DNA of 39,305 nucleotides from a virus. Lineage: Duplodnaviria; Heunggongvirae; Uroviricota; Caudoviricetes. Made by a program: the position numbers and the translations under genes. Position 1 is the stretch's first letter; the number at the start of each line of letters is the position of its first letter. Location of the stretch: IMG/VR virus record IMGVR_UViG_2706794689_000009, one strand, 5' to 3'. The notes under the pieces are model-generated. The model was given only the letters and a program-made list of their open reading frames with translations, was not told the DNA's origin and did not search any database. Of the stretch, positions 2 through 39,305 are shown one piece after another.

Positions 2-199
2 CTATTACCTTCTTCAGAGAGCCCCCAGCTACTTCCTGTGACTCTCGATGCAGCTGCCGAACAGCCAGAATCGCTCGCAGAGGACCCGAAAACCCTCAGT
101 ATCAGCTGTGAGGTAACGTTCCGGCACGGGACGCTCCGCTTCAATGGCAATGTCAGCGAAAAGCTCCTGACTCTGCTGATACAGGAACTGAAGCGATGA
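2..199 (+). CDS. IS66-family tnpA (orf1), 3' fragment; 5' end lies outside the window
   Basis: Open frame runs from the window edge to TGA at 197-199, overlapping the ATG of the next gene in an ATGA arrangement typical of IS66 orf1/orf2 coupling. Family assignment rests on context only. Confidence 0.45.
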   Translation, partial: LLPSSESPQLLPVTLDAAAEQPESLAEDPKTLSISCEVTFRHGTLRFNGNVSEKLLTLLIQELKR

Positions 200-519
200 T
201 CCCGTTACCTTCCGGGATCAAAATTTGGCTGGTTGCCGGTATCACCGATATGAGAAATGGCTTCAACGGCCTGGCTGCGAAAGTACAGACGGCGCTGAAA
301 GACGATCCCATGTCCGGCCATGTTTTCATTTTCCGGGGCCGCAGCGGCAGTCAGGTTAAACTGCTGTGGTCCACCAGTGACGGACTGTGCCTCCTGACCA
401 AACGGCTGGAGCGTGGGCGCTTCGCCTGGCCGTCAGCCCGTGATGGCAAAGTGTTCCTTACACAGGCGCAGCTGGCGATGCTGCTGGAAGGTATCGACTG
501 GCGACATATAACCAGGTGA
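196..519 (+). CDS. tnpB: IS66-family accessory protein TnpB (orf2)
   Basis: 107-aa translation MIPLPSGIKIWLVAGITDMRNGFNGL...GHVFIFRGRSG...DGKVFLTQAQLAMLL matches the conserved IS66 Orf2 signature as I recall it. Size and ATGA overlap with the upstream frame fit. Confidence 0.85.
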   Translation: MIPLPSGIKIWLVAGITDMRNGFNGLAAKVQTALKDDPMSGHVFIFRGRSGSQVKLLWSTSDGLCLLTKRLERGRFAWPSARDGKVFLTQAQLAMLLEGIDWRHITR

Positions 520-521
520 AT

Positions 522-680
522 CATTTGATACCGACAAGGGGTTTAGTGAAAGGAGGTGAAATCACCTGTAAGATACTGAAATAAAACAGGTGATGGCTAG
601 ATGTGCGGATAAGGTCTATTTGATACCGATTGTGCAATAATTAGTCATTTATTATAAAATCGGCAACTCATTTGATACTG
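522..680 (+). repeat. Left-end transposase-binding repeats, three copies of CATTTGATACYG (about 522-533, 616-628, 667-680)
   Basis: Directly visible repeated 12-14 nt motif. The reverse complement recurs three times at the right end (39031-39100). This is analogous to the L1-L3 and R1-R3 MuA binding sites of Mu. Confidence 0.6.
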
Positions 681-752
681 TGGTTTTAGTCTTTTAAGGC
701 GTTCCAAACAATGCGAAATACTCGATATAGTGCAAAATGCGGGCTAATGCTA

Positions 753-1298
753 TTAACCCGCTTTTGGTTCTACCGCGTTAGATTTGCGACTTCTCTCAGT
801 TTCTTCCAAAATCTCTCTGACGCGTTCGTCAGACATACCTTCAAGCTGTAATGCAGCTATTCTTTTCCTTCCTTCTAAGCGGATTAGATCTTGATTTTCA
901 GGCTCTAACAACCGAGCTAAGTACTTGGCTCCATTCAGAACCAAATTTTTCGATAGCTGCTCTAAGTCTTTTTCATCAAGTGCGCTGATAATCGTCATAA
1001 TTATCTTCTTGCTTTCATCTTGATTTTCCTTGATCTCACACCGATTCACTTGTGATGCATCACTGAATCCACATAGCCACTCAACACTTACTCCTTCGAT
1101 AGACGCAATCTGAAGGGCGACACTTAAGGATGGCTCAGTGCCACGAGACAGATAATTGTTTAGTGTTGAAAATGAAAGCCCCCAATCTCTTGCTGCAGCT
1201 CTGACGCTGCGGGAGCCAATCAGCCTTTTCAGACGCTCAGCAATGCTTTCTTTTCTACCACCAGGAAAAGAAAGAGATGTTGTTGTTTGCTTGTTCAT
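753..1298 (-). CDS. Prophage repressor (Mu c-like, HTH DNA-binding)
   Basis: 181-aa ORF divergent from ner/A/B at the left end. The N-terminal region RLKRLIGSRSVRAAARDWGLSFSTLNNYLSRG resembles an HTH. Position matches the Mu c repressor. Confidence 0.75.
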   Translation of the reverse strand: MNKQTTTSLSFPGGRKESIAERLKRLIGSRSVRAAARDWGLSFSTLNNYLSRGTEPSLSVALQIASIEGVSVEWLCGFSDASQVNRCEIKENQDESKKIIMTIISALDEKDLEQLSKNLVLNGAKYLARLLEPENQDLIRLEGRKRIAALQLEGMSDERVREILEETERSRKSNAVEPKAG

Positions 1299-1430
1299 TT
1301 TCTTTTCTTCCTATCAATTTGAAATTATTAACTTTTAGTGTTGTCAGCAACCATTGATCCACAATAGACAAAAGAAAGATGTTTTTTTTGCTTTACATGA
1401 AGCAGAAGTGGATCAATACTTATATCAAAC

Positions 1431-1454
1431 TTGATAACTAAGTTTAGTTATCAA
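1431..1454 (+). promoter_or_regulatory. Perfect palindromic operator candidate TTGATAACTAA-gt-TTAGTTATCAA in the repressor/ner divergent region
   Basis: 11-bp perfect inverted arms with a 2-bp spacer, about 30 bp upstream of the ner start. A second inverted pair TGATCCAC/GTGGATCA lies at about 1354-1415, and a TTTACA -35-like hexamer near 1392. Likely early promoter/operator region. Confidence 0.5.
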
Positions 1455-1483
1455 ATTTCGTAACTTTTTAGGATAGATGAATC

Positions 1484-1714
1484 ATGGCGAGAAATGAAGT
1501 TAAGCCTGATTGGCATCCTCAAAGAATTTTGGGGGAAGTCAGAGCCAGAGAAGGAAGCATGAGGGCGCTGGCCCGTAAAGCTGGCGTGGGTCAGAACAAT
1601 CTGTACAACGCGGTATACCGCCATGTTCCCAAGTATGAGGGGATTATCGCGGAATGCCTGGGGGTGCCGCCCGAGGAGATTTGGCCCAGCCGCTACATTC
1701 GTAAGGTCGCGTAA
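1484..1714 (+). CDS. ner: Ner-like DNA-binding early regulator
   Basis: 76 aa. Conserved motifs DWHPQRILGEVRAR, NNLYNAVYRHVPKYEGIIAECLGVPPEEIWPSRY match the Mu Ner/Nlp family. Sits immediately upstream of the transposase. Confidence 0.9.
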   Translation: MARNEVKPDWHPQRILGEVRAREGSMRALARKAGVGQNNLYNAVYRHVPKYEGIIAECLGVPPEEIWPSRYIRKVA

Positions 1715-1716
1715 TT

Positions 1717-3804
1717 ATGTTTGCTTCAGTTAAAGAACTGGTTGGATTACCGGGGATGCCGGGAACGGAGCAAGGCGTTCGCTATTCAATCAGGAAGTAT
1801 GCAACCAGCGAAACCAGCAGACGCCGCAAGAAAGGCGCTAAAGGTTTTGAATACAGCATTGACTGTTTACCTGAAGTGACACAGCAGGCATTACGCGAAC
1901 GTTATGCCCTGCAACTGATGACGCAAAAAGCCGATGAATCACCGGCTCCGGTGGTGACAAAGGCCAGACGCTCGTCTGCCGTGGTTGATGCGGTGGAGGC
2001 ATATCGCGGATCACCACAACTGATGGTCGAACGCCTCAATGCCCTGACTGAAAACCAGCGCCAGGTGGCAGACGCACGCATTGCGATCGTCAGTGAGGTG
2101 CTGAAATTCACGCAACAACCCGGTTTCAGCTGCGCTAAAGCTATCCGGTTCCTCGTTAACAGCCTGGCACGATCACAACTGGACGAGCGCATTGTGGCAA
2201 TGGTTGAGACGGCGAACGCCAAAAAGGGAAACAGCCGCGCGTTGAGTGAAATCACGCTGAAACGCTGGATTGCGGCCTTTAACAAGGCACAGAACGCCGC
2301 TGAACGCCTGCTTTTACTGGCACCGGGTAAACGCCAGGAAATAAAAGCCGAAGATATTAACTGGCTGCCCGAATTTCTGGCGCAGTATCGCCAGTCAAAC
2401 GGCCGACCAATGACCGAGGCTTACGAGGATTTTGTTGCTGAATGGCAGCACCGGCACGCTGATGAGCCTTATATGCTCGATATCATGCCCTCTTATGACA
2501 CCATTCGCCGCGCAATGAAGAAACTGCCGGAAGTGGTGAAACAAAAAGGCCGGGTAACTGGCAGTGAATACCGTCAGCTTGAGGGATTCACGCGCCGCGA
2601 CTGGTCCAGAATGCCGGTGAATTATGTCTGGATTGGTGACGGTCACGGCATGAAGCTGAAATGCGCGCACCCGGTTCACGGGCGGCCATTCGCACCGGAA
2701 GTGACCTTTGTTATCGACGGTGGCACGCGCTTTGTGGTGGGCTGGAGCCTTGACCTGGCTGAAAATGTTTTCGCCGTAGCCGGTGCCATACAGCACGGTA
2801 TTCGCCATCATGGCAAACCGTTTCTGTATTACTCGGATAATGGCTCCGGGGAAACCGCCGACGTCCTGGATAAGGAGATTGTGGGGATACTGCCACGACT
2901 GGGGATTAATCACCCGACAGGGATTGCCGGTAATCCGCAGGGACGGGGCATTATCGAACGGCTTAACCGCACATTACCGATGCGCATAGCCCGTAAATAC
3001 CGCACCTATTTCGGGAAAGGAGCAGATCGCGAGACGTTACGTAAAACCAACCGCGATTTACGCTCGGCATTCAGTGCCCTGCAACAGGGCAAACGGCTGA
3101 ACGCCCGGCAGCAGTCAGCGATGCGTGATTTACCGTCCTGGTCTGAACTGATTGATGCCATTCGTGACGGTGTTGAGTGGTACAACAACCGGCCGCACGA
3201 TGAATTACCCATGAAGCCGAACGGTAAACATTACAGCCCGGCGGAGTTCAGAAAAAAACGCCTGGCGGAAGAGGACACGGAAATTGAATGGCTGTCCGAT
3301 GTTGAACTGCGGGATATGTTCCGGCCGATGGTGGAGCGCCCTGTAAGACGCTGTGAAATACGCTGGCTGAATAATATTTACTACGCGCCCGAGCTGCGTG
3401 ACGAGCATGGCCGTAAGGTACTTATCAGCTATGACATTCATGATGCCGAACGAATTACCGTGCGCCGCCCGGATGGCAGCGTGATTTGCGAGGCGGTATG
3501 GGACGGCAATAAACGCGAAGCCTTCCCTGTCAGCGCGGAATACTACAAACAGCAGCAGCGCCTTAAAGGCATGCGTAAACGCGCAGAGGAAAAAATCCGT
3601 GATGCCGAGGATGAGGTTGTCAACGTGCTGGAGCACAAGCCGCAGGAGCCCTGGCTGGAAAACATATACCGCCCTGTGGGTAATACGGTGACCGTTCAGC
3701 AACCGGTCGCTGACGATGAACCTGATGAAGAATACGAGCGTAATTTCCAGCGGGGATTGCAACTGCTCGAAGCGAAATTAAAAGAAAGTGATCCGCTGGC
3801 CTGA
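1717..3804 (+). CDS. A: Mu-type DDE transposase A (MuA)
   Basis: 695-aa ORF with N-terminal DNA-binding region and central integrase-like core (VWIGDGHGMKLK...SDNGSGETADV). Position after ner. Confidence 0.93.
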   Translation: MFASVKELVGLPGMPGTEQGVRYSIRKYATSETSRRRKKGAKGFEYSIDCLPEVTQQALRERYALQLMTQKADESPAPVVTKARRSSAVVDAVEAYRGSPQLMVERLNALTENQRQVADARIAIVSEVLKFTQQPGFSCAKAIRFLVNSLARSQLDERIVAMVETANAKKGNSRALSEITLKRWIAAFNKAQNAAERLLLLAPGKRQEIKAEDINWLPEFLAQYRQSNGRPMTEAYEDFVAEWQHRHADEPYMLDIMPSYDTIRRAMKKLPEVVKQKGRVTGSEYRQLEGFTRRDWSRMPVNYVWIGDGHGMKLKCAHPVHGRPFAPEVTFVIDGGTRFVVGWSLDLAENVFAVAGAIQHGIRHHGKPFLYYSDNGSGETADVLDKEIVGILPRLGINHPTGIAGNPQGRGIIERLNRTLPMRIARKYRTYFGKGADRETLRKTNRDLRSAFSALQQGKRLNARQQSAMRDLPSWSELIDAIRDGVEWYNNRPHDELPMKPNGKHYSPAEFRKKRLAEEDTEIEWLSDVELRDMFRPMVERPVRRCEIRWLNNIYYAPELRDEHGRKVLISYDIHDAERITVRRPDGSVICEAVWDGNKREAFPVSAEYYKQQQRLKGMRKRAEEKIRDAEDEVVNVLEHKPQEPWLENIYRPVGNTVTVQQPVADDEPDEEYERNFQRGLQLLEAKLKESDPLA

Positions 3805-3886
3805 AATAAAAAAATAACCCGAGGGGTGACTCAGGTTATTTGAGGTTTCAGTCTCGGAGAATGCTGTCTCAAGCGAGGTGAATAAT

Positions 3887-4819
3887 ATGACCGATATTAA
3901 CGATGTAATCAAGACCATTGATGAACTTATTGATGGCGGCGTACTGACGCAGTATGCCATCGCCAGAGAGGCGGGAATTTCCGACGGCACATTATCGGCT
4001 TTCCGTAAGGGAAAATATAAAGGCGATAACGCTGCTGTGGCTGCTTCCCTGCGCTCCTGGTATGAGAACTGGAATAAACAAAGCGCACTGCCGGAACCGC
4101 CGCAGTTTGTGGAAACTCAGACAGTCCAGGAGCTGCGCGCACTGTTTCAGGCGGTTCGCCTGATGGGCTGTATTAACGTTATTGTGGGCGTACCGGGTGT
4201 GGGTAAAACGGCCACTGCCCGTAATTACTGCCAGGAGCAACCAAACACCTGGATGATCACCCTGTCACCCGCGCACTCCAGCGTCACGGAGTGTCTGCTG
4301 GAGCTGGCCGATGCGCTGGGGATTGATTACACCCGCGCGAACAAAGGGGCATTATCCCGCGCCATCCGCCGTCGCCTGATGGGAACGCGTGGACTGGTGA
4401 TTGTGGATGAGGCGGATCATCTTGGTATTGACGGTCTGGAGCAACTCCGGGCAATTCAGGACGCCACGGGGATCGGGATGGTGCTTATTGGTAACCCGCG
4501 CGGATTGTTTAAAGGTGGACGCCGCGCCTTTGATGATTTATCGCGCCTGTTCAGCCGTCTTGCCCGTACAAAACAACTTCGCAAGGCCAAAAAGGCGGAT
4601 GTGCTGGCCATTGCCATGGCGTGGGGGATCAGTGGTGAGGCCGAGCTGGCCGTCATGCAGGCTATCGCTGAAAAGCCGGGAGCGTTACGCGTTCTGACAC
4701 ATACGCTTAACCAGGCGTGGCTCACCGCCAGCGGTGAAGGCGCGGCGCTGACAGAAAAACATATTAATGCGGCCTTTAAAGAGGTTTATACCAACCCTGA
4801 ATTACTCTCACAGGTGTGA
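3887..4819 (+). CDS. B: Mu transposition ATPase B (MuB, AAA+ target DNA activator)
   Basis: Walker A GVPGVGKT and Walker B LVIVDEADHL. Overall co-linearity with Mu B (LPEPPQFVETQTV, KPGALRVL). ATG 3887 chosen after a GAGGTG ribosome-binding site; the frame opens at GTG 3878. Confidence 0.9.
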   Translation: MTDINDVIKTIDELIDGGVLTQYAIAREAGISDGTLSAFRKGKYKGDNAAVAASLRSWYENWNKQSALPEPPQFVETQTVQELRALFQAVRLMGCINVIVGVPGVGKTATARNYCQEQPNTWMITLSPAHSSVTECLLELADALGIDYTRANKGALSRAIRRRLMGTRGLVIVDEADHLGIDGLEQLRAIQDATGIGMVLIGNPRGLFKGGRRAFDDLSRLFSRLARTKQLRKAKKADVLAIAMAWGISGEAELAVMQAIAEKPGALRVLTHTLNQAWLTASGEGAALTEKHINAAFKEVYTNPELLSQV

Positions 4820-4821
4820 TT

Positions 4822-5043
4822 ATGGCGGTATTTAATATTCCTGATATTTACGGACGCTTTTACCTGGTTAATTTCGATAACGTGAAGGTGATTTCACTGG
4901 CCGAAAATAAAGAATGTGGCGATTTACTTTTTGAATTTAATGACCGCACACGAATGGTGATATCTGCCGGACTTGATCGCGAAGGTGCGACAGAAGTTTA
5001 CAGCGGAATATGCCGTTCTGTTGGTGCGAAACAAGTCAGCTAA
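4822..5043 (+). CDS. Small early protein in the Mu kil position (about 74 aa)
   Basis: ORF overlaps the B stop codon; size and position match Mu kil. Call is by position only, no recognisable motif. Confidence 0.45.
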   Translation: MAVFNIPDIYGRFYLVNFDNVKVISLAENKECGDLLFEFNDRTRMVISAGLDREGATEVYSGICRSVGAKQVS

Positions 5044-5310
5044 ATGAGGTGTTATATGAATATGCAATCCTGCGGTAACAAAATGAATTTATTCGACTCC
5101 CTGAACAGCGCGCGCCGTCTGACCGAACTTGCCGGTGCGGTACTGGAACGCAGTAAGCGCTATCCGCAACGTTTTGCACTGAAAACCACGCCGCCGGTAG
5201 GCAACGTGCAGGGAACCGGTGAAATTGAAATCACCATACAGACCAACGGCCTGCGCCGCCGTGTGAAGGCCACCCGCATCAGCGGCTGCACGGTTTACTG
5301 GGAGGTGTGA
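5044..5310 (+). CDS. Hypothetical early-region protein
   Basis: 88-aa ORF on the same strand, contiguous with neighbours; multiple possible ATG starts (5044/5056/5062). Confidence 0.45.
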   Translation: MRCYMNMQSCGNKMNLFDSLNSARRLTELAGAVLERSKRYPQRFALKTTPPVGNVQGTGEIEITIQTNGLRRRVKATRISGCTVYWEV

Positions 5311-5311
5311 G

Positions 5312-5593
5312 GTGAAAAAAAATCTCATTGCATGGGCGTGGTCGAGTGGTCTTATTGAGTTTGGTTACGTCCTGCCGGAAGGTGCATTGCCGATAGTTGC
5401 CGGAAAGCCTGCCACGGTACGGCATGTGATTGAGGTTATGGCGCGTCATGGACGTGATGAACAGGAGCAGTTACTGGTTCCGGGGATACCGGAAGCGGTG
5501 ACGGAGGAAGAAGCCTTTAATGCCATGATTCGGTTCTGCCGTGAGGTTAGACGCCGGGTCAGTTATCCAAACAGAACGAGGACCAGAGGATGA
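5312..5593 (+). CDS. Hypothetical early-region protein (GTG start)
   Basis: 93-aa ORF tightly packed between neighbours; its end overlaps the next start. Confidence 0.4.
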   Translation: MKKNLIAWAWSSGLIEFGYVLPEGALPIVAGKPATVRHVIEVMARHGRDEQEQLLVPGIPEAVTEEEAFNAMIRFCREVRRRVSYPNRTRTRG

Positions 5594-5862
5594 GTAAAGT
5601 CGTACGCATTATTTTCGAATACAAGGAAGATGTTATCTGCAAAAACTCTGATGGCAGCACGCACAGAGGGGTAAGTCTGGATATACGTTCAACCGGAATA
5701 AAGAAGAAAGATAATGGACCCGCCATGATTTTTGGGGTGGTTATGCTGGCAGAAAGCAGAAACTTCGCAGAGTTTGTGGCAATGAAAGCCAGTGCATTCA
5801 TGAAAGACAGAGGCATGGCTTCCGGGGTTATTAACGGTAATGAATTTAATCAACAGGGGTAA
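5590..5862 (+). CDS. Hypothetical early-region protein, tandem paralog copy 1
   Basis: 90 aa, begins MSKVVRIIFEYKEDV. The next gene has a near-identical N-terminus. Confidence 0.55.
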   Translation: MSKVVRIIFEYKEDVICKNSDGSTHRGVSLDIRSTGIKKKDNGPAMIFGVVMLAESRNFAEFVAMKASAFMKDRGMASGVINGNEFNQQG

Positions 5863-5866
5863 TTCC

Positions 5867-6160
5867 ATGAGCAAAGTACGCGTTATTTTTGAATTTAATC
5901 ATGTTTCGCATGACGAAAAGTTGGCAGGCAATGACTGTGTTGAAGTGCATGAAAAGATTGGAGTGGATGTGAAAACAGAACGTGATACGGATAACAGGCC
6001 GACGTCACTCTGTGACGTTTATGCAAGTATTCTCCAGTATCACAGTCCTGCAATTATTCAGTTTCTCTCAGCGGAATTTCAGGCATCTGCACAGTCTTTT
6101 GGAGCGGATGCCATCATTAAACGCCACCGCGTGCATAAAGCATCAGGCACACTGCAATAA
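5867..6160 (+). CDS. Hypothetical early-region protein, tandem paralog copy 2
   Basis: 98 aa from ATG 5867, begins MSKVRVIFEFNHV. Starts 5 nt after the stop of copy 1, with an AGGGG ribosome-binding site. Confidence 0.55.
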   Translation: MSKVRVIFEFNHVSHDEKLAGNDCVEVHEKIGVDVKTERDTDNRPTSLCDVYASILQYHSPAIIQFLSAEFQASAQSFGADAIIKRHRVHKASGTLQ

Positions 6161-6171
6161 GGAAAAACAAA

Positions 6172-6702
6172 ATGGCTAAACGCGTTACAAAATTAAAGGC
6201 CGCAGCCGAGGCGGCACCGCAGACCCGGGAAGAAGTCAGCCGTGATATCCGCACCCTGGGAGATATTCAGCGAGAGGCGCTGCGCCTGGAAACGGCGATG
6301 AATGACGAAGTGGCAGAAATCACCGCCCGTTATACGCCGCAGATTGAAAATCTTAAAAAGCAAATCAAAGTGCTTTTTAAAGGGATTCAGGACTGGTGCA
6401 AAACCAACCGTGATGAGCTGACGAACGGCGGCAAAACCAAAACAGCCAATCTGACCACCGGAACGGTGTCATGGCGGCTGGGAACGCCATCATGCAGCGT
6501 CAGCCGTGATGTGGAAGGTGTGATTGAAATGCTGCGCCGTATGGGGCTTGAGCGTTTCATCCGCACGAAAGAGGAAGTGAACAAGGAAGCCGTCCTGGCG
6601 GAGCCGGATGCTGTGAAAGGCATTGCCGGTATCAAGGTGAATAAAGGCGCTGAAAGTTTTTATGTCGAGCCTTTTGAACAGGACGCCGGACTGAATAAAT
6701 AA
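6172..6702 (+). CDS. gam: Gam-like host-nuclease inhibitor (DNA-end binding)
   Basis: 176 aa. Coiled-coil N-terminus and motifs TGTVSWRLGTPS, FIRTKEEVNKEA typical of the Mu Gam family. Position in the early region fits. Confidence 0.8.
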   Translation: MAKRVTKLKAAAEAAPQTREEVSRDIRTLGDIQREALRLETAMNDEVAEITARYTPQIENLKKQIKVLFKGIQDWCKTNRDELTNGGKTKTANLTTGTVSWRLGTPSCSVSRDVEGVIEMLRRMGLERFIRTKEEVNKEAVLAEPDAVKGIAGIKVNKGAESFYVEPFEQDAGLNK

Positions 6703-6847
6703 CACCGCATTAATCAATTAAATATCACTTCATTTTAATTATGGCGCTCGCGTCAGGGGACTGCTTGCGCCTGAAAACAGAAAATAAGGGTTAAGAAATA
6801 TGAAATACGTTTATATCGTCATTAATAATGTGGTGGGGAAATAAATC

Positions 6848-7381
6848 ATGATTGATGCAAAAGTGCTTGAAGGGGTTAAAAACTGGCTGTGTATTTATGG
6901 CCGCCTGACCTGCGGTGTACTGGCTGAAAAAATGAATATGCCGCCATCCTCCATGGTTTATTTTCTGCGTGATGCGGTTGATGCAGGCGTGCTGACGGAA
7001 TGTAACGGTTTTTATGATATTCCGCGTCCCCGCCCGGTGCAGCCGGTTCGTCGCAAATGCAGCCAGGAATCTGCGGCTGATGATGTTCAGTGGTGCGGCT
7101 TCAGAAAATCCCTGCCATGGATTGAGGGGCATGATATTCCGTCGATGGCGTGGGAATTTGCTCAGGGCGTTCTGACCTGTGAAACCGTTTATGTGGTGGC
7201 TGAAGTTGATGAGCAGGCCATGAAAGAAGGCGTGCCCCAGTTTGTGATGGCGTATATCGACATACGCCTGGGCGTCATTATCTGCGGTTTAAGCGGCTGG
7301 AATATCACTGAACATGTTCTGCGCTACCTGATTGTTGACCGGACAGCAGCGCCTGCCGGGATATCTGCGGAGGTGGCGTAA
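6848..7381 (+). CDS. Hypothetical early-region protein
   Basis: 177-aa ORF; stop overlaps the next start (translational coupling). Confidence 0.5.
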   Translation: MIDAKVLEGVKNWLCIYGRLTCGVLAEKMNMPPSSMVYFLRDAVDAGVLTECNGFYDIPRPRPVQPVRRKCSQESAADDVQWCGFRKSLPWIEGHDIPSMAWEFAQGVLTCETVYVVAEVDEQAMKEGVPQFVMAYIDIRLGVIICGLSGWNITEHVLRYLIVDRTAAPAGISAEVA

Positions 7382-7896
7382 TGTTCTTTAAAACATCAAA
7401 CCCTTCCGCGCTGGCTGCGTGGCAAAAATACCAGCAGGACTGCCAGAAAGTTAAGGATGAGGCAAAACGCCTTGAGGCCGTGCTGAATGTTGCGTGCCGG
7501 TCGGTATTTGTATCCGGTATCAGTGGATTTTACTTTAAGGGACTGCGTTTTACGGAGGACAAATATCCTTTTCATCGCGACTTATGGCGAAAACCGACTG
7601 CGTCGAATGGCTGGAGCTGCACACCGCGCACATCACGTATCCCTAAAACCCTGCGTGTTGCCTCTGATGAACTGAACAGTCTGTGGCGTGAATATTCGCC
7701 CGTCACGTATGCCAGAACCGATGCGCTGTTGTTCTGGTTGGGTATTGATTTCTCGGCAATCCTGTTTGGCCCTGTGAAGTGGTTCTGCGTTGACGATGTG
7801 ATTTACCTTCAGTGCGGCGTAAAACCCGCAAAACAGAAAATGACCGAAATACTGTCTGATGAGTTTTATGCTGCTGAAAAGCGAGTCAGGGGGTGA
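7381..7896 (+). CDS. Hypothetical early-region protein
   Basis: 171-aa ORF in the operon; no recognisable motif. Confidence 0.5.
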   Translation: MFFKTSNPSALAAWQKYQQDCQKVKDEAKRLEAVLNVACRSVFVSGISGFYFKGLRFTEDKYPFHRDLWRKPTASNGWSCTPRTSRIPKTLRVASDELNSLWREYSPVTYARTDALLFWLGIDFSAILFGPVKWFCVDDVIYLQCGVKPAKQKMTEILSDEFYAAEKRVRG

Positions 7897-7899
7897 TGC

Positions 7900-8451
7900 A
7901 TGATGAAATTACAACCCATGGGACTAAAAGGTCGCGCCCCCGCTCATGTCCGTCCGTGGACACCTGAAGAAGATGCGCTGCTGATTGCGCTTTATTCATC
8001 CACCCCGGTTAAGGATATTGCTGCCAGAATAAAAAGAACTGTCTGGGCTGTATATAACCGGACTGGTGTATTGCGCAGTTCATACCCGGAGTTACTGAAA
8101 TATAAACACCCAAGATTTACACCTGATGAAGATAAGTTTATTCGAAAAAATGCCAGAACAATGACCTGCCAGCAAATGGGAGAATATCTCGGACGTAATA
8201 AAGATTCTGTCAGATGTCGGGCAGGAATGATTGGTGCTGGATTAACAAAGTGCGGAGAGTTACGCCCCGGCACGCGCATATCTGATGATGATGTACGTCT
8301 TATACGTGAGCTGCGTGATTCCGATTACCCACGCCGTCTGTCATTCCGGGAAATTGGCGAAAAGTTTGGAATATCTGAACATTCTGCTCACGCAGTTTAT
8401 TACCGTCGCCGGACTGCCGAGGACGCTGTATTACGGGAGTTAACGCCATGA
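7900..8451 (+). CDS. Putative DNA-binding protein with two Myb/SANT-like W/FTPEED repeats and a C-terminal HTH-like segment
   Basis: Translation shows WTPEEDALLIALY...VWAVYNR and FTPDEDKFIRKNAR...VRCRAGM repeats, followed by LSFREIGEKFGISEHSAHAVYYRR. Confidence 0.5.
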   Translation: MMKLQPMGLKGRAPAHVRPWTPEEDALLIALYSSTPVKDIAARIKRTVWAVYNRTGVLRSSYPELLKYKHPRFTPDEDKFIRKNARTMTCQQMGEYLGRNKDSVRCRAGMIGAGLTKCGELRPGTRISDDDVRLIRELRDSDYPRRLSFREIGEKFGISEHSAHAVYYRRRTAEDAVLRELTP

Positions 8452-9495: not shown

Positions 9496-10018
9496 ATGAA
9501 TCGCGCTTCCCTGATTACCTTAATACATGTCGCAAAACGCGATCTACAGCTTGACCATGATACCTATACATCCGCGCTGCTGGCAGCCACCGGCAAATCC
9601 AGTTGCCGTGATATGTCACCCGGTGAGTTATCCCGCGTGCTGGATGTTTTCAAAAAACGCGGTTTTAAAGTGCGTCAGANNNNNNNNNNNNNNNNNNNNN
9701 NNNNNNNNNNNNNNNNNNNNNNNNNNNNNNNNNNNNNNNNNNNNNNNNNNNNNNNNNNNNNNNNNNNNNNNNNNNNNNNNNNNNNNNNNNNNNNNNNNNN
9801 NNNNNNNNNNNNNNNNNNNNNNNNNNNNNNNNNNNNNNNNNNNNNNNNNNNNNNNNNNNNNNNNNNNNNNNNNNNNNNNNNNNNNNNNNNNNNNNNNNNN
9901 NNNNNNNNNNNNNNNNNNNNNNNNNNNNNNNNTGCTGGCAGCCCTGGATATGTCGGAACGTGCAGTGATGAGTTATGAGCGTGTTTGCAGGCTGTATGAA
10001 AAATCATTCCCCCGTTAA
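9496..10018 (+). CDS. gemA: GemA-like early regulatory protein, interrupted by N-mask 9680-9932
   Basis: N-terminus MNRASLITLIHVAKRDLQLDHDTYTSALL...LSRVLDVFKKRGF fits the Mu gp16/GemA family. A C-terminal piece after the mask ends at 10018. Frame continuity across the mask cannot be verified. Confidence 0.55.
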
Positions 10019-10337: not shown

Positions 10338-10597
10338 NNNNNNNNNNNNNNNNNNNNNNNNNNNNNNNNNNNNNNNNNNNNNNNNNNNNNNNNNNNNNNN
10401 NNNNNNNNNNNNNNNNNNNNNNNNNNNNNNNNNNNNNNNNNNNNNNNNNNNNNNNNNNNNNNNNNNNNNNNNNNNNNNNNNNNNNNNNNNNNNNNNNNNN
10501 NNNNNNNNNNNNNNNNNNNNNNNNNNNNNNNNNNNNNNNNNNNNNNNNNNNNNNNNNNNNNNNNNNNNNNNNNNNNNNNNNNNNNNNNNNNNNNNNN

Positions 10598-33471: not shown

Positions 33472-33736
33472 ATNNNNNNNNNNNNNNNNNNNNNNNNNNN
33501 NNNNNNNNNNNNNNNNNNNNNNNNNNNNNNNNNNNNNNNNNNNNNNNNNNNNNNNNNNNNNNNNNNNNNNNNNNNNNNNNNNNNNNNNNNNNNNNNNNNN
33601 NNNNNNNNNNNNNNNNNNNNNNNNNNNNNNNNNNNNNNNNNNNNNNNNNNNNNNNNNNNNNNNNNNNNNNNNNNNNNNNNNNNNNNNNNNNNNNNNNNNN
33701 NNNNNNNNNNNNNNNNNNNNNNNNNNNNNNNNNNNN

Positions 33737-33840
33737 CTGCTCCCAGCCTGATATCCTGGATATATCGGGAATCCGCATCCTGCTGTGTTATACCAGAAGT
33801 GATGTTTATGTCCTGCGTCCCGTCAAAGGGAACCCCATTA
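33737..33840 (-). CDS. Alternative tail fibre variable segment (Sv'-like), fragment visible between N-masks
   Basis: Minus-strand translation [34 protein letters not shown] starts at the right crossover repeat and shares [11 protein letters not shown] with S. Confidence 0.5.
33811..33840 (-). repeat. gix-like inversion crossover site, right copy (may extend into the N-mask)
   Basis: Reverse complement of 32699-32728 with one mismatch. Confidence 0.65.
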
Positions 33841-34090
33841 NNNNNNNNNNNNNNNNNNNNNNNNNNNNNNNNNNNNNNNNNNNNNNNNNNNNNNNNNNNN
33901 NNNNNNNNNNNNNNNNNNNNNNNNNNNNNNNNNNNNNNNNNNNNNNNNNNNNNNNNNNNNNNNNNNNNNNNNNNNNNNNNNNNNNNNNNNNNNNNNNNNN
34001 NNNNNNNNNNNNNNNNNNNNNNNNNNNNNNNNNNNNNNNNNNNNNNNNNNNNNNNNNNNNNNNNNNNNNNNNNNNNNNNNNNNNNNNNNN

Positions 34091-34620
34091 CGGCGCTACA
34101 AAGAAATGCGCTGGAATGTGCAGGATGTGAGCTGTTTTTCGAAGACAGAATAAGCGGTAAGACAAGGGAGCGTCCCGGACTTAAACGCGCATTAAAGCGA
34201 CTCCGGCCAGGGGATACCCTGCTGGTCTGGAAACTGGATCGCCTTGGACGCAGTATGCAGCACCTTGTCCTTTTAACAGAAGAACTCCGGCAACGCGGCG
34301 TTAACTTCCGCAGCATTACGGACAATATTGATACATCCACTCCCATGGGACGTTTCTTTTTCCATATAATGGGCGCGCTGGCGGAAATGGAGCGGGAACT
34401 CATTATTGAACGTACACGCGCGGGTCTTGCTGCTGCCCGTGCTCAGGGGCGTCATGGCGGCAGACCTCAGAAACTGACAGAGAAAGAGCGGGAGCAAATC
34501 GCCCGTTTGCTGGCTAATGGCGAGTCCCGTAAACAAATCGCACTGATATTTGATATTGGCCTTTCCACCCTTTATCGTTATTTTCCTGCCTCACCAGCTC
34601 CGTCACCAAAAGTACCGTGA
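34091..34620 (+). CDS. gin: Serine recombinase DNA invertase (Gin/Hin/Cin/Pin family); 5' end inside N-mask
   Basis: Visible translation LQRNALECAGCE...DRPGLKRALKRL..GDTLLVWKLDRLGRSM.HL...ELRQRGVNFRSITDNIDTSTPMGRFFFHIMGALAEMERELIIERT..GLAAARAQGR.GGRP is near co-linear with Mu Gin. The catalytic serine region is masked. Confidence 0.9.
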
Positions 34621-34705
34621 CGCTTTTTTGAATTTCCGCAAAACACATATTTTTCAGCGGTCGCTATTCTGACTCTGTTTAATTCAGAAACAGGCAGAAA
34701 AGACG

Positions 34706-36760
34706 ATGTCAGACTCCAAGTGGAAAATGCTCTCCGCCATGCCCGGAGAGTTTTCAGTCAAGGTTGCCGGTGGCACGGTGGCATTTATTGAAAGCCCTTT
34801 CCGCCCTTCGGGTAATAAAGGGGGGATCACCTTCGCAGACTGCGTGATCCGCTTCAGCACGAAAGAGCCATTATGGGTAATGCCGGTATCCGGTAATCCC
34901 AGTGCAGAAATCACCAGTTCAGGCGTGACTGGCATCATTCCAATCACATCTGACGTGGCCGGAACGCTCACGCCCTCCGACTGGAATGCACCGGATAACG
35001 CCGGGCCTTCCGGTAGCACGAATGGCAGCAGTTCAGAGCCGGAATATTACTTTGTTGTCATTCTCGCGGGTCAGTCAAATGGCATGGCCTACGGCGAGGG
35101 GCTGCCGTTACCGGATTCGTTTGACCGCCCGGACCCACGCATTAAGCAACTGGCACGCCGCAGTACGGTAACGCCCAACGGTACGTCGTGTACATACAAC
35201 GACATCATTCCGGCAGACCACTGCCTGCATGATGTTCAGGATATGAGCGGGATAAACCACCCGAAAGCTGATCTGGCAAAAGGCCAGTACGGGACTGTCG
35301 GTCAGGGGTTGCATATTGCCAAAAAACTGCTTCCCTATATCCCACAGAATGCCGGGATACTTCTGGTGCCCTGTTGTCGTGGCGGGTCAGCATTCACCAC
35401 TGGAGCCGACGGCTCATTCAGTGAGGCCAGCGGTGCTTCCGCTGATTCTTCACGCTGGGGGGCCGGTAAACCTCTGTATCAGGACCTGGTAAGCCGCACC
35501 AAAGTCGCGCTGGCGAAAAACCCGAAAAACAAACTTCTGGCTGTGGTCTGGATGCAGGGAGAGGCAGACCTTGCCTCAGGAAGCCAGCAGCATAATAGTT
35601 TATTCACGGCCATGGTTCAGCAGTTCAGAACTGACCTGGCTCCGCTTGCTGCGCAGTGCGTGAGTGGAAATGCCACCACGGTGCCGTGGATTTGCGGTGA
35701 TACCACGTATTACTGGAAAAACGCTGGCACCGATAAATATGAGGCAGTATACGGTGGCTACAAAGGCAAGGAAGCACAGAAAATTTTCTTTGTACCGTTC
35801 CTGACGGATGAGAATGGACAGAGCACGCCAACGAATGCTCCGGCGGAAGACCCGGATATTGTGGCTGTCGGGTATTACGGTGCAGCATCCCGAACCCAGG
35901 GCAGTTTTGTTTCGACACAGCGTGACAGCCATTTCAGCTCATGGGCACGCAGGGGCGTCATTTCAGACCGTCTGGCCTCAGCTATTATGCTCCATGCAGG
36001 GCGCACGGCTGAACTGATGCGTGGGCAGACCGTGACACCACCGGATGAGAAGCCGTCACCTGATACACCATCAAAACCGTCCACGCCACCCGCAGACACC
36101 ACGACGATGAGTACGCTATTTGCTTACCGGGCATCTGAGTCTGAAGGACGGTTGACACCACAGGGTTGGGCTGCCGGAGGTGGCAAGGCTCAAATCGTGG
36201 ATGATGCCGGAGCCAGCGGGGGTAAGGCAATGAAACTGACCAAGGAAACAGGAAGAGCCCCCTGGTACCTTGAGCATGATGCTGGTAATGGTGCGGACCT
36301 GCTGGGTAAAGGTGGTCTTGTCAGTTGTCGTTTTAAACTCGATGGCGCGCTTACGGCTAATCAGTACGCACTGGCGCTGTACTGGCCGGTTTCTGCCCTG
36401 CCGCAAGGGGTTACTCTGGAAGGAAATGCCGGTCATAACCTGCTGGCATCGTTCTACGTACAGAGCGATGCCACAGACCTTAACGTGATGTATCACAAAG
36501 GAAACACGGCGCAGAACACGAAGCTGGGGTCATTCGGCGCATTTAATAACGAATGGCATACGCTGGGCTTCCGTTTTGCCGGTAACAACAGTATTGAGGT
36601 GACGCCGGTCATTGATGGTAAGGACGGGACACCATTCATGCTGTCGCAGTCTCCGGTCGGCACGTTTACGGCAGACAAGTTGCGCGTGACCGATATCACT
36701 AAAAATGCGACTTACCCGGTACTGATTGACAGTATCGTGGTGGAAGTGAATAACGCGTAA
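34706..36760 (+). CDS. Putative SGNH/SASA-family esterase (sialate O-acetylesterase-like) with Pro/Thr/Ser linker and C-terminal beta-rich domain
   Basis: 684 aa. Motif VVILAGQSNGMAYGEG (GQSN block of the SASA/SGNH fold), linker PPDEKPSPDTPSKPSTPPADTTT, then a roughly 220-aa C-terminal domain. Not part of the Mu backbone. Confidence 0.55.
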   Translation: MSDSKWKMLSAMPGEFSVKVAGGTVAFIESPFRPSGNKGGITFADCVIRFSTKEPLWVMPVSGNPSAEITSSGVTGIIPITSDVAGTLTPSDWNAPDNAGPSGSTNGSSSEPEYYFVVILAGQSNGMAYGEGLPLPDSFDRPDPRIKQLARRSTVTPNGTSCTYNDIIPADHCLHDVQDMSGINHPKADLAKGQYGTVGQGLHIAKKLLPYIPQNAGILLVPCCRGGSAFTTGADGSFSEASGASADSSRWGAGKPLYQDLVSRTKVALAKNPKNKLLAVVWMQGEADLASGSQQHNSLFTAMVQQFRTDLAPLAAQCVSGNATTVPWICGDTTYYWKNAGTDKYEAVYGGYKGKEAQKIFFVPFLTDENGQSTPTNAPAEDPDIVAVGYYGAASRTQGSFVSTQRDSHFSSWARRGVISDRLASAIMLHAGRTAELMRGQTVTPPDEKPSPDTPSKPSTPPADTTTMSTLFAYRASESEGRLTPQGWAAGGGKAQIVDDAGASGGKAMKLTKETGRAPWYLEHDAGNGADLLGKGGLVSCRFKLDGALTANQYALALYWPVSALPQGVTLEGNAGHNLLASFYVQSDATDLNVMYHKGNTAQNTKLGSFGAFNNEWHTLGFRFAGNNSIEVTPVIDGKDGTPFMLSQSPVGTFTADKLRVTDITKNATYPVLIDSIVVEVNNA

Positions 36761-36776
36761 GCAGGATAAAAAAATG

Positions 36777-36809
36777 CCGCCGGTAAGGGAAAACAAGAAA
36801 CCGGCGGCA
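36777..36809. terminator. GC-rich hairpin GCCGCCGG-(17 nt)-CCGGCGGC flanked by an A-run on plus and a T-run on minus
   Basis: 8-bp perfect stem immediately after the esterase stop. A U-tract follows only in minus orientation, so it is probably a minus-strand or bidirectional terminator. Confidence 0.4.
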
Positions 36810-36904
36810 AAAAGATCGTTATATCCAAAGCAAAAAATGCAGTGCACCTTTTTACCTAACAGATATTACCGGTGTCAACACCATGTCAATAATTGGGAGG
36901 GATA

Positions 36905-37087
36905 ATGACATTTTTACAGCTTATTTTATTGTATTTCTGCACGGCAGTATGTGCGTTATATCTGGTGAGTGGTGGTTATAAGGCCATCAGAAATTATGTT
37001 CGCCGCAAAATTGAGGACGCAGCAGCTGAAAAACTCAGTAAAACAGCGCAGGTAACTCCGCTCCCAAAAGACCCGACCCAGCCCTGA
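36905..37087 (+). CDS. Small single-pass membrane protein (about 60 aa)
   Basis: GGGAGGG ribosome-binding site then ATG. TM helix FLQLILLYFCTAVCALYLV followed by a basic tail. Confidence 0.4.
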   Translation: MTFLQLILLYFCTAVCALYLVSGGYKAIRNYVRRKIEDAAAEKLSKTAQVTPLPKDPTQP

Positions 37088-37122
37088 TTGCAGGGCTTTA
37101 TTCCCGCATAAGGAGGATATAC

Positions 37123-37377
37123 ATGCCAGAAATTAAAGGCACCGTCACTGAAGACCTGGTAAAACAGGCACTGTATTCCGGTGAAGTAAATAAGTTGCTG
37201 AAAGCGCAGGTCCGCAAGGATTTTGAGGCACAAATCGACACTTACGTTGATGAAGTGCTGGCAAAACTTATTGGGCCAGCAGTTGCGGCCAGTGATGCTG
37301 ATAATGAGCCGAAAACCGACGCGCAGCCAGAGCAACCAGACCCGGCTCAGCCCGGAACTGACAGTACCATGATGTAA
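37123..37377 (+). CDS. Small acidic protein (84 aa)
   Basis: Near-consensus TAAGGAGGA Shine-Dalgarno 7 nt before the ATG. Helical N-terminus, acidic Pro-rich tail. Confidence 0.45.
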   Translation: MPEIKGTVTEDLVKQALYSGEVNKLLKAQVRKDFEAQIDTYVDEVLAKLIGPAVAASDADNEPKTDAQPEQPDPAQPGTDSTMM

Positions 37378-37385
37378 CAATACAA

Positions 37386-37463
37386 ACCGGTGGTGTCCTC
37401 TGCCGGTTTGACACTAATGAAAACATCTTTGCCGCTATCCAGCCATATGTAATCGCTGGATAG
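37386..37463. terminator. Two hairpins between convergent genes (AAACCGG...CCGGTTT, and 9-bp inverted repeat CTATCCAGC...GCTGGATAG)
   Basis: Inverted repeats directly visible between the 37123-37377 plus-strand gene and the 37545-37838 minus-strand gene. Confidence 0.35.
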
Positions 37464-37544
37464 TATTTCGTATTCAGAAATATAGCTGCTTATGGAGCAG
37501 TCAATCCTGCTTCCCCATCCGGGCAGGCAAATGAACCGGTATCA

Positions 37545-37838
37545 TTAGTCCGATTCACGCTTTTGTAGAATCGTTCCCAGAATGCTATACAGCTCATTAG
37601 CCTGTTGCTCCATCATTGAGACGGAGGCTATACGGTGCAAAGTGATTTCAGGAGGTGGCACACCTCCATCTTCTTGCTGTGGAGGAAAAACATAAGATTT
37701 AATAAAAAAGTTGAAGCATATGAACTCTCCCGCACTCGAACTGTATTTGCAGGCATCTGAATAATCGGAAAAATAATCATTATAGATTTCCGCATTTTCA
37801 ATCATTTTTCGATTTCTCGTCGTTACATGATTGTCCAT
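37545..37838 (-). CDS. Hypothetical AT-rich protein, divergent from com-mom
   Basis: 97-aa ORF with markedly lower GC than the phage backbone. Its start faces the GATC-containing mom control region. Confidence 0.45.
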   Translation of the reverse strand: MDNHVTTRNRKMIENAEIYNDYFSDYSDACKYSSSAGEFICFNFFIKSYVFPPQQEDGGVPPPEITLHRIASVSMMEQQANELYSILGTILQKRESD

Positions 37839-37961
37839 AGCAGCCTCTTACGCTGGCAATTAACCAATTGACTTCTATAAATTAGTTGATTTGTTTGCTT
37901 TGCGGTATTCAAATGTACAATCATTCAGCACTTATGCGTTACAGCACCGTTTAAAATTAGT

Positions 37962-38047
37962 GATCAAACTCATAAATTTTCGCTAATGACATTTCGTGTT
38001 ATTTGTTGTATCAATTAAATAAATCAAATCGATCGTTTTTGTCGATC
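37962..38047 (+). promoter_or_regulatory. mom upstream control region with three GATC (Dam) sites at about 37962, 38031 and 38044
   Basis: AT-rich intergenic region immediately upstream of com with GATC sites clustered, including the palindromic GTCGATCGAT. In Mu, the mom promoter is controlled by Dam methylation of three upstream GATC sites (OxyR binding). Confidence 0.45.
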
Positions 38048-38094
38048 GATTGAGTGATAAAGATATCAACAACAAAGCAGGAGGTTATGCGGCC

Positions 38095-38295
38095 ATGTAT
38101 CGAAACATACGGTGCCGACATTGTAACAAGCTACTGGCACGAGCCAGCTTCAGTTATCTGGAAGTTAAATGTCCGCGCTGTAAAACCCTCAATCAAATCA
38201 CATCTCAGAGCGCCACAGAGCACCCCACATACACAAGGAAATCCTGTCGTGGGGAACAGAAAGCAAGTTACATCCCGTATCATCAGCACGCCTGA
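38095..38295 (+). CDS. com: Com zinc-finger translational activator of mom
   Basis: From ATG 38095 (AGGAGG 10 nt upstream): [35 protein letters not shown]...EHPT, co-linear with Mu Com including the CxxC-(16)-CxxC zinc finger. Confidence 0.8.
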
Positions 38296-38986
38296 ACTTA
38301 TTCACTATAACGACAATATCGTCGGTTATGGCTCCCGTGAGTTACGGGTTGAGACAATAAGTTGCTGGCTGGCCCGGCTGGTCGTCGTCAATAAACATTA
38401 CAGCCATCGTTTCGTAAATAATTCCTACCTTCATCTGGGCATATTTTCAGAACGGGAGCTGGTTGGCGTAATGCAATGGGGTTATGCCCTTAATCCAAAC
38501 AATGGTGCACGCGTCGTAACTGGCACGCAGAACCGCGAATATATGGAGCTTAACCGGTTATGGCTGCATGACTGTATGCCGAGAAACTCCGAATCAAGGG
38601 CAATCAGTTACGCGCTCAAACTAATCAGACAACTTTATCCGCAGGTGCAGTGGGTTCAGTCGTTTGCAGATGAGCGTTGTGGCTGTCTTGGTGTCGTGTA
38701 CCAGGCAAGCAATTTTGATTATGTAGGCAGTCATGAAACAACATTCTATGAACTTGATGGCGAGTGGTATCACGAGATTTGCAAGAATGCAATCAAACGA
38801 GGAGGACAGCGAGGTGAACATCTGCGGGCTAATATCGACAGAGCCAGTGTTCATAAATTCCGTCAGTTTCGTTACATCCGGTTTCTGGACAAGAGAGCCA
38901 GAAAACGCCTTAACACAAAGCTATTCAAAGTCCAGCCTTACCCAAAACCACAAACAGTTAAAACTGGTTTGAAAGAGAGTGAATGA
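38249..38986 (+). CDS. mom: Mom-like DNA modification protein (start inferred as GTG 38249)
   Basis: Long frame overlapping the 3' end of com as in Mu; about 245 aa from GTG 38249. An AAGGAA ribosome-binding site and the GTG lie inside a stem CCCCAC...GTGGGG (about 38223-38254), resembling the Mu mom translation-inhibition structure that Com opens. No sequence-level identification of Mom was possible. Confidence 0.6.
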
Positions 38987-39100: not shown

Positions 39101-39217
39101 ATCGCCGCGCTATAGACAGCCTAAGCGGCTGCTGACCTCCCTGACCATGCTGTAAATCTCTTTATCCTGGTTGTCACAGAATAAGCCCGGTAAAATACGG
39201 GCTTATGAACGACATCT

Positions 39218-39305
39218 CTTCTGACGACATCTTCCTGCTGAAACAGCGCCTTGCCGAACGTCAGTTGAAAACGAAACCGCTGCTGAAATCCCTGGAAAGC
39301 TGGCT
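39218..39305 (+). CDS. Probable IS66-family transposase TnpC, 5' fragment continuing beyond the window
   Basis: ATG 39218 preceded by a 7-bp hairpin. Translation MNDISSDDIFLLKQRLAERQLKTKPLLKSLESW is open to the window edge. Assignment rests mainly on the IS66 tnpA/tnpB at the other side of the prophage. Confidence 0.4.

Follow-up and report, generated by a model that had tools for sequence, protein, structure and literature searches.

A predicted NanS-p-type sialate esterase module between gin and com-mom in a Mu-like prophage lineage of Escherichia coli

In phage Mu, the DNA invertase gene gin is followed by com and mom, with a gap of 95 nucleotides (nt) between gin and com. The virus record IMGVR_UViG_2706794689_000009, a stretch of 39,305 nt analysed here at its full length and referred to as the window, possesses 3,474 nt between the gin stop (34620) and the com start (38095). 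What does this block encode, and how did it come to lie there? An earlier note made from the sequence alone had described about 3.4 kilobases (kb) interposed relative to Mu, a figure that the measured distance bears out, and had proposed an acquired cargo of one esterase gene and three small genes. We consider it likely that the block corresponds to the NanS-p cargo module of the late region of lambdoid and Shiga toxin (Stx) prophages, resident between gin and com-mom in a lineage of Mu-like phages of Escherichia coli. As such it is a known module in a new host phage type, and not a new kind of system.

The esterase and its two companion genes

The genes and protein domains on which this assignment is based are the following (E values in brackets; aa, amino acids; pLDDT, predicted local distance difference test; pI, isoelectric point):

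34706 to 36760, plus strand: esterase gene, an open reading frame (ORF) of 684 aa
34706 to 34990, plus strand: N-terminal domain of the esterase (aa 1-95), all-beta, standing in for DUF1737, no Pfam family
34991 to 35035, plus strand: linker 1 (aa 96-110), rich in Ser, Gly, Pro and Asn, predicted to be disordered (pLDDT below 50 at aa 98-111)
35036 to 35989, plus strand: predicted catalytic domain of SASA/SGNH type (aa 111-428); Ser124 lies in GQSN, His409 in DSHF (Pfam SASA, PDB 3PT5)
35990 to 36109, plus strand: linker 2 (about aa 429-468), with the Pro/Thr/Ser-rich TPPDEKPSPDTPSKPSTPPADTTT, located between two PDB-matched regions
36110 to 36760, plus strand: C-terminal lectin-like jelly-roll, DUF6645 (aa 469-684), and stop codon (Pfam, PDB 6YP6)
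36905 to 37087, plus strand: DUF1378 gene, 60 aa, one N-terminal transmembrane helix, pI 9.3 (Pfam 1.2e-31; phrog_494 1.6e-32)
37123 to 37377, plus strand: DUF826 gene, 84 aa, acidic (pI 4.24), with an AAGGAGG Shine-Dalgarno sequence (Pfam 6.4e-16; phrog_311 4.9e-28)

Profile searches with the 684-aa protein gave strong matches to both SASA/SGNH and lectin-like families. Pfam detected SASA at aa 117-312 (1.5e-13) and DUF6645 at aa 533-650 (7e-68), and the protein belongs to phrog_143 (1.7e-296). Residues 110-428 align end to end with NanS/YjhS of E. coli (PDB 3PT5, E 1.8e-117), at about 70% identity as estimated by eye from the alignment. Similarly, aa 469-683 match the crystallised C-terminal domain of NanS-p (PDB 6YP6, E 7e-98), at roughly 75% identity by eye. 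Ser124 and His409 are conserved and align with the NanS residues which we take, from the literature on 3PT5, to be its catalytic dyad. The aromatic residues Y554, Y559, Y584 and F654 are also conserved and correspond to Y510, Y515, Y540 and F611 of vb_24B_21, which have been proposed as its carbohydrate site (PMC10462455).

Because of the matches to 3PT5 and 6YP6 and the conserved catalytic and sugar-site residues, the 684-aa protein is predicted to be a NanS-p-type sialate 9-O-acetylesterase. Proteins of the NanS-p family de-O-acetylate 5-N-acetyl-9-O-acetylneuraminic acid (Neu5,9Ac2) and mucin O-glycans, and permit growth on Neu5,9Ac2 (PMC8065619). The SASA/SGNH-type esterase with a GQSN motif and a C-terminal beta domain described in the earlier note can hence be placed in the NanS-p family specifically, and the Pro/Thr/Ser linker was found at about aa 440-468. 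Inspection of the N-terminus revealed no signal-peptide-like hydrophobic stretch. In RefSeq, these proteins are named only "DUF6645 domain-containing protein".

The DUF1378 and DUF826 genes follow the esterase gene immediately and share its strand. A lambdoid prophage used for comparison possesses the order Q, transfer RNA (tRNA) genes, SASA esterase, DUF1378, DUF826, holin and lysozyme, and ORFs with DUF826 and DUF1378 have been described between nanS-p and S (PMC10462455). Esterase, DUF1378 and DUF826 together are thus, by gene content and order, assigned to the lambdoid nanS-p module. The DUF1378 ORF has 60 aa from the ATG at 36905, or 64 aa if translation starts from the TTG at 36893. Both small proteins agree with their earlier description, one as a 60-aa protein with a single transmembrane segment (one hydrophobic stretch was found) and the other as an acidic 84-aa protein with a near-consensus Shine-Dalgarno sequence. 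The view that the small genes of the block have no recognisable family does not hold for these two and was retained for the third, a 97-aa gene (orf97).

All four ORFs of the block (684, 60, 84 and 97 aa) were present where the earlier note had placed them. They are considered real genes and not chance ORFs because of very strong database matches and purifying selection against diverged copies. The ratio of nonsynonymous to synonymous substitution rates (dN/dS) was 0.04-0.15 for the esterase domains, 0.14-0.30 for DUF1378, 0.08-0.16 for DUF826 and 0.36 for orf97. The guanine-cytosine (GC) content was 0.55-0.62 in the tail genes, 0.51-0.58 in the esterase and 0.37-0.50 in the small genes and the com-mom end. 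The lower GC content ascribed to the block is therefore evident in the small genes and the com-mom end, but weak in the esterase.

Similar to NanS-p of Stx and lambdoid prophages (933W z1466/L0105; phi24B vb_24B_21, which is gp84), the window protein has the SASA/SGNH domain with its Ser and His residues, the lectin-like DUF6645 domain with four aromatics, two flexible linkers and no signal peptide, and it is followed by the same two genes. The identity reaches 89.6% over aa 98-684 in blastp, with no match before aa 98. However, lambdoid NanS-p possesses DUF1737 where the window protein has an unrelated beta domain of about 95 aa, and the lengths differ (636-657 aa versus 684 aa). The lambdoid gene is located between Q/stx and the holin gene S, whereas in the window the gene is flanked by gin and com-mom of a Mu-like, transposable phage, and would thus be outside Q antitermination and SOS control. 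Chromosomal NanS shares the catalytic domain with GQSN and DSHF, but consists of one domain only (about 326 aa) and belongs to the nan regulon, whereas the window protein is phage-borne and adds the N-terminal domain, two linkers and the lectin-like domain.

Distribution of the block and exchange with lambdoid prophages

The window contains one complete Mu-like prophage (507-39114, 38.6 kb), a context supported by Pfam and PHROGs matches of gin, com and mom. The order gin, esterase, DUF1378, DUF826, variable slot, com and mom was found in every Mu-like locus with enough sequence. As exceptions, some loci are without gin, and two IMG/VR loci (L007 and L012) switch to lambdoid genes after the esterase. 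Among 5,426 complete E. coli genomes, DNA of the N-terminal domain was present as allele A in 32 and as allele B in 205 (many of them O157:H7), which places the block in about 237 genomes, or about 4%. Esterase proteins of the two alleles are 33% different (67% identical); com and mom are 95-100% identical.

The right end of phage Mu harbours gin, com, mom and a GATC cluster upstream of com in the same order as the window, but not the block. A gin-mom PCR (polymerase chain reaction) product of 1.5 kb implies that SfMu also lacks it (PMC4406740). Alignment with Mu maps the left breakpoint within the last ~15 codons of gin, which diverge from Mu gin, and the right breakpoint to ~38010, at a match to the 3′ end of Mu gin and the GATC cluster of the mom region. 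The Mu-like phage found in Stx phages of O157 ("Bacteriophage Mu-like phage", LC727881 and LC727895; Sp18-type) has 92% DNA identity to the window over early, head and tail genes (509-24996), the same order from gin to com and the same type of N-terminal domain. However, it carries esterase allele B, and a 64-aa zinc-ribbon gene occupies the slot instead of orf97. In LC727881 (L003, 6051-7302), an insert in a Stx2c phage, the place of mom after com is taken by another DNA-modification gene, which encodes a C5-cytosine DNA methylase (Pfam 2.1e-42).

The block had been proposed to be a horizontally acquired moron. Its absence from Mu and, judged by PCR product size, from SfMu, and a core common to lambdoid prophages agree with acquisition. 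Nevertheless, the same gene order in every related Mu-like locus examined, together with deeply diverged alleles, contradicts a one-off insertion, since the block is lineage-wide. With regard to features of morons, promoter-like sites were at chance level, hairpins were found after esterase, DUF1378 and DUF826, and the block is fixed in the Mu-like lineage.

The block contains a tract similar to lambdoid copies, and two hairpins:

35036 to 36963, plus strand: lambdoid-like tract, which begins near codon 111 of the esterase and takes in the first ~20 codons of DUF1378 (blastn against the lambdoid locus L002, 88.6% DNA identity)
36766 to 36808, no strand assigned: GC-rich hairpin of 9 base pairs directly after the esterase stop, terminator-like on the minus strand, with a U7 tail
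37080 to 37097, plus strand: small hairpin across the DUF1378 stop codon, with compensatory changes that maintain pairing in allele B

The tract is uninterrupted over 1.9 kb, and only 68% identical to the Mu-like allele B. Similar limits were observed in other lambdoid matches (H33-H35). We regard the tract as a putative recombination footprint. DUF826 shows the opposite pattern, as its protein is closer to allele B (76% identity) than to the lambdoid copy (43%); for DUF1378 these values are 72% and 57%. Given a centre near lambdoid copies and a DUF826 near allele B, the module appears to be old in Mu-like phages, with its centre exchanged with lambdoid copies. The near-identical 1.9-kb tract also indicates that Mu-like and lambdoid genes still recombine. 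When the window DUF826 was searched with tblastn against phage records, only Mu-like copies matched, because lambdoid DUF826 is just 43% identical.

The lambdoid and allele-B copies with which the window was compared have a hairpin after the esterase stop too, and the DUF826 gene likewise has a hairpin 3′ of its end. An Rfam match to the small RNA Esr41 (36766-36848) was discarded, as its 22 bits lie far below the gathering score of 102, and the match was driven by the terminator-like hairpin and absent from the lambdoid copy.

Several related loci deviate from the common arrangement. In L007 (IMGVR_UViG_2617270951_000022, 96-8236), gin and a Mu-type esterase are followed by lambdoid holin, DUF1327, lysozyme, Rz and Nu1 genes. 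This hybrid junction points to recombination between Mu-like and lambdoid prophages via the shared nanS-p tract, which evidently, judging from the gene order, also rearranges prophages. In L012, com-mom is inverted and located about 5 kb downstream. E. coli CI5 (L004, 4329-5155) carries a variant of the same Mu-like prophage in which gin, except for its last ~70 nt, and the second half of the G segment are missing, whereas the esterase block is complete. In a Mu-like prophage of Salmonella enterica (L006, GCA_037428405.1, 8792-10461), gin is followed by a 58-aa tail-anchored membrane ORF, an 87-aa helix-turn-helix-like ORF and then the esterase, whose N-terminal domain is 30% identical, whose Pro/Thr linker is long and whose gene ends at the contig edge. 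The two small Salmonella ORFs were compared with DUF1378 and DUF826, and were ruled out as their counterparts. P2-like phages (L058 and L059; vB_EcoM-569R5, P88-like) possess a NanS-p-like gene of the DUF1737 type directly after the lysis genes. The presence of such genes in P2-like phages as well suggests that the esterase entered at least three temperate phage types.

The variable slot, com-mom and expression signals

The remaining features on both sides of the module are (PGAP, Prokaryotic Genome Annotation Pipeline):

33799 to 34620, plus strand: gin, serine DNA invertase, a window ORF with 72% aa identity to Mu gin, 5′ part masked by undetermined letters (N)
34621 to 34705, plus strand: spacer of 85 nt between gin and esterase, retained in the CI5 variant without gin
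37378 to 38094, no strand assigned: variable AT-rich slot between DUF826 and com, GC 0.39, filled in at least six different ways among related prophages
37545 to 37838, minus strand: orf97, 97 aa or 86 aa from Met12, acidic (pI 4.7), an orphan and the slot occupant in the window
38010 to 38050, plus strand: match to the Mu gin 3′ end and region upstream of Pmom, ATCAATTAAAT ... ATCGATCG-N8-GATCGATT, with GATC cluster (alignment with Mu)
38095 to 38295, plus strand: com (Pfam Zn_ribbon_Com 1.3e-12; PGAP of identical copy)
38249 to 38986, plus strand: mom (Pfam Mom 1.6e-77; PGAP)

The slot is a diversity hotspot of small orphan-gene cassettes. Its equivalents were compared in eight loci (L003, L009, L022, L024, L029, L038, L048 and L049), and its contents measure 463, ~620, ~720, ~855, ~933 or 1,048 nt. 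Alternative occupants include the 64-aa gene with a CPAC..CPAC zinc ribbon, a convergent pair of 66-78 aa, and a zinc-ribbon membrane protein of 175-201 aa. No known family or function was detected for these genes in Pfam, PHROG or PADLOC. The contents combine freely with either esterase allele, and this independent shuffling places orf97 outside the esterase module.

As described earlier, orf97 is a divergent gene in AT-rich DNA. In identical copies from E. coli, PGAP gives it a length of 86 aa, and homologues at least 79% identical were found in E. coli and Shigella only. Searches against Pfam, PHROGs, NCBIfam and PADLOC yielded no family for orf97; its dN/dS of 0.36 suggests a real gene. 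The three small genes were once viewed as a single accessory module, which is at odds with these results, as DUF1378 and DUF826 travel with the esterase and orf97 belongs to a separately shuffled slot.

For com and mom, we used the coordinates that PGAP gives in an identical E. coli copy, and Pfam confirmed both genes. Upstream of com (38010-38094), the Mu-type GATC cluster is kept, and ~45 nt comprising the C-binding box (TTATGCCCCAATAA), the -35 segment and the spacer of Mu are absent. Control of com-mom would consequently have to differ from that of Mu's Pmom. A search for a conserved C-box found none. The only candidate for a Mu C-protein box in the window, TTATN6ATAA at 37098-37111, was rejected, since 27 of 100 shuffled sequences would be expected to contain such a site and the other alleles do not retain it. 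The gin-esterase spacer showed no convincing promoter or terminator.

Four runs of N, of 250-263 nt each, interrupt the window (9680-9932, 10338-10597, 33474-33736 and 33841-34090). The last two hide the start of gin and a portion of the invertible G segment. In the unmasked gin orthologue of L007, Resolvase and HTH_7 domains were identified. The prophage is inserted in an ISEc8 element (IS66 family), whose sequence is contiguous across the flanks 1-506 and 39115-39259. The two halves of ISEc8 overlap by the 4 nt GACA, a target duplication, as expected for fresh transposition.

The N-terminal domain and the possible role of the enzyme

The new element of the block is, as far as sequence comparison can tell, the beta domain of about 95 aa that replaces DUF1737, with which NanS-p of lambdoid and P2-like phages begins. 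With the E threshold relaxed to 10, Pfam still gave no match for aa 1-110, whereas DUF1737 of the lambdoid control L002 was detected at 3.7e-17, and hhalign of the domain against DUF1737 returned a probability of 0.08%. AlphaFold2 (AF2) with an alignment of the window and Salmonella sequences gave a moderate model (pLDDT 69) with beta strands over aa 7-88, and pLDDT 34 without alignment. Fold searches revealed generic cupin/jelly-roll similarity only. The domain has a dN/dS of 0.04, which indicates strong purifying selection.

Two protein collections, of 5.8 billion and 1.8 billion sequences, yielded only E. coli and Shigella fragments and one fragment of Salmonella enterica with 30% identity. 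Among 50,697 phage records, the domain was present in two Mu-like inserts only. Scans of IMG/VR and metagenomes added 51 loci, all from the two E. coli alleles, and a profile of the domain had no match in species-representative genomes. Relatives were thus found only in Mu-like prophages of E. coli, Shigella and Salmonella. In the loci compared, the N-terminal domain tracks the phage type, while the catalytic and lectin domains have moved between Mu-like and lambdoid copies.

As a NanS-p module, the block would act as follows. By analogy with characterised family members, the enzyme would strip 9-O-acetyl groups from Neu5,9Ac2 on mucin glycans and thereby make the sialic acid usable by E. coli, with the lectin-like domain directing it to glycans. 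As it has no signal peptide, it would leave the cell at phage lysis or riding on the particle. The membrane protein DUF1378 and the acidic DUF826 may be accessory partners of the enzyme, and orf97 a separate orphan gene in the adjacent slot. The related Sp18 is reported to be predicted intact and not inducible by mitomycin C (PMC2669165), and Mu-like phages of this kind are not SOS-inducible. Together with a location outside Q antitermination, this leads us to expect Mu-type rather than SOS control. The timing of expression should hence differ from that of Q-dependent, mitomycin-induced lambdoid copies.

Three points weigh against this interpretation. Transfer between lambdoid and Mu-like phages may have run either way. 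Sigma-70 promoter-like sites are at chance level (four found versus 6.1 expected), and the substrate specificity is carried over from NanS on the basis of ~70% identity estimated by eye.

Other explanations overlap with the NanS-p interpretation to different degrees. One concerns the delivery route: the esterase could be a virion component whose N-terminal domain docks on the Mu-like capsid or tail, so that the particle would carry, or later shed, a mucin-binding de-acetylating enzyme. In phi24B gp84, itself a NanS-p, DUF1737 is a capsid decoration bound as hexamers on the hexons, and the esterase part is apparently cleaved off (bioRxiv 10.64898/2026.04.10.717836). The domain of the window protein occupies the same position, is followed by a disordered linker, is under strong constraint, tracks the phage type and was never found outside Mu-like prophages, all of which favours docking. 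We hold the virion component, and likewise the particle carrying or shedding the enzyme, to be a tentative possibility. That the domain is a docking module specific to Mu-like phages, equivalent to DUF1737 yet unrelated in sequence and, by a model of moderate confidence, in fold, is slightly more doubtful.

SGNH esterase domains occur in some tailspikes, and the esterase gene lies directly 3′ of the tail-fibre and G-segment genes. Both facts would suit an enzyme that acts on bacterial glycans, such as the O-antigen of lipopolysaccharide or an O-acetylated polysialic (K1) capsule, and that either aids adsorption or changes the lysogen surface so as to exclude phages, a possibility raised for NanS-p generally. 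The source of this suggestion is a review (PMC8065619). Nevertheless, the catalytic domain resembles sialate-specific NanS at ~70% identity, the lectin-site residues match NanS-p, and the similarity to PHROG tail proteins is marginal (1.2e-06 and 0.018 over about 100 aa). Furthermore, a protein without signal peptide would not reach the lysogen's own surface except by lysis, and we consider an action on bacterial glycans very unlikely.

A role of DUF1378, DUF826 and orf97 in defence, anti-defence or superinfection exclusion, as suggested in the earlier note, is almost as improbable. The position of orf97, in an AT-rich slot with at least six small-gene cassettes beside the anti-restriction gene mom, is typical of accessory hotspots, and DUF1378 is a small membrane protein. 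However, no such family matched any gene of the block: the PADLOC profile search with the four block proteins gave a single, meaningless match of 12.9 bits, and Pfam and PHROG indicated no such function. DUF1378 and DUF826 are moreover fixed companions of nanS-p upstream of the lambdoid holin and not variable, and orf97 varies independently of them.

We therefore return to the NanS-p module as the preferred explanation. NanS-p lets pathogenic E. coli feed on O-acetylated sialic acids of mucin, and has so far been studied in lambdoid and Stx prophages; a full-text literature search pairing nanS-p with Mu-like phages found no paper linking them. As the Mu-like copies are named only by DUF6645 and are without DUF1737 or lambdoid context, counts of nanS-p alleles based on either would probably miss them. 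The shared 1.9-kb tract may serve as a homology patch for recombination between Mu-like and lambdoid prophages, of which hybrid junctions were seen. A swap of only the N-terminal domain provides a direct test of the proposal that this position anchors the protein to the virion. If this proposal is true, NanS-p would be a plug-in enzyme: lambdoid, P2-like and Mu-like phages would pass its catalytic and lectin parts among themselves by recombination, each type with an anchor of its own, and Mu-like particles would be mucin-targeting virions decorated with esterase.

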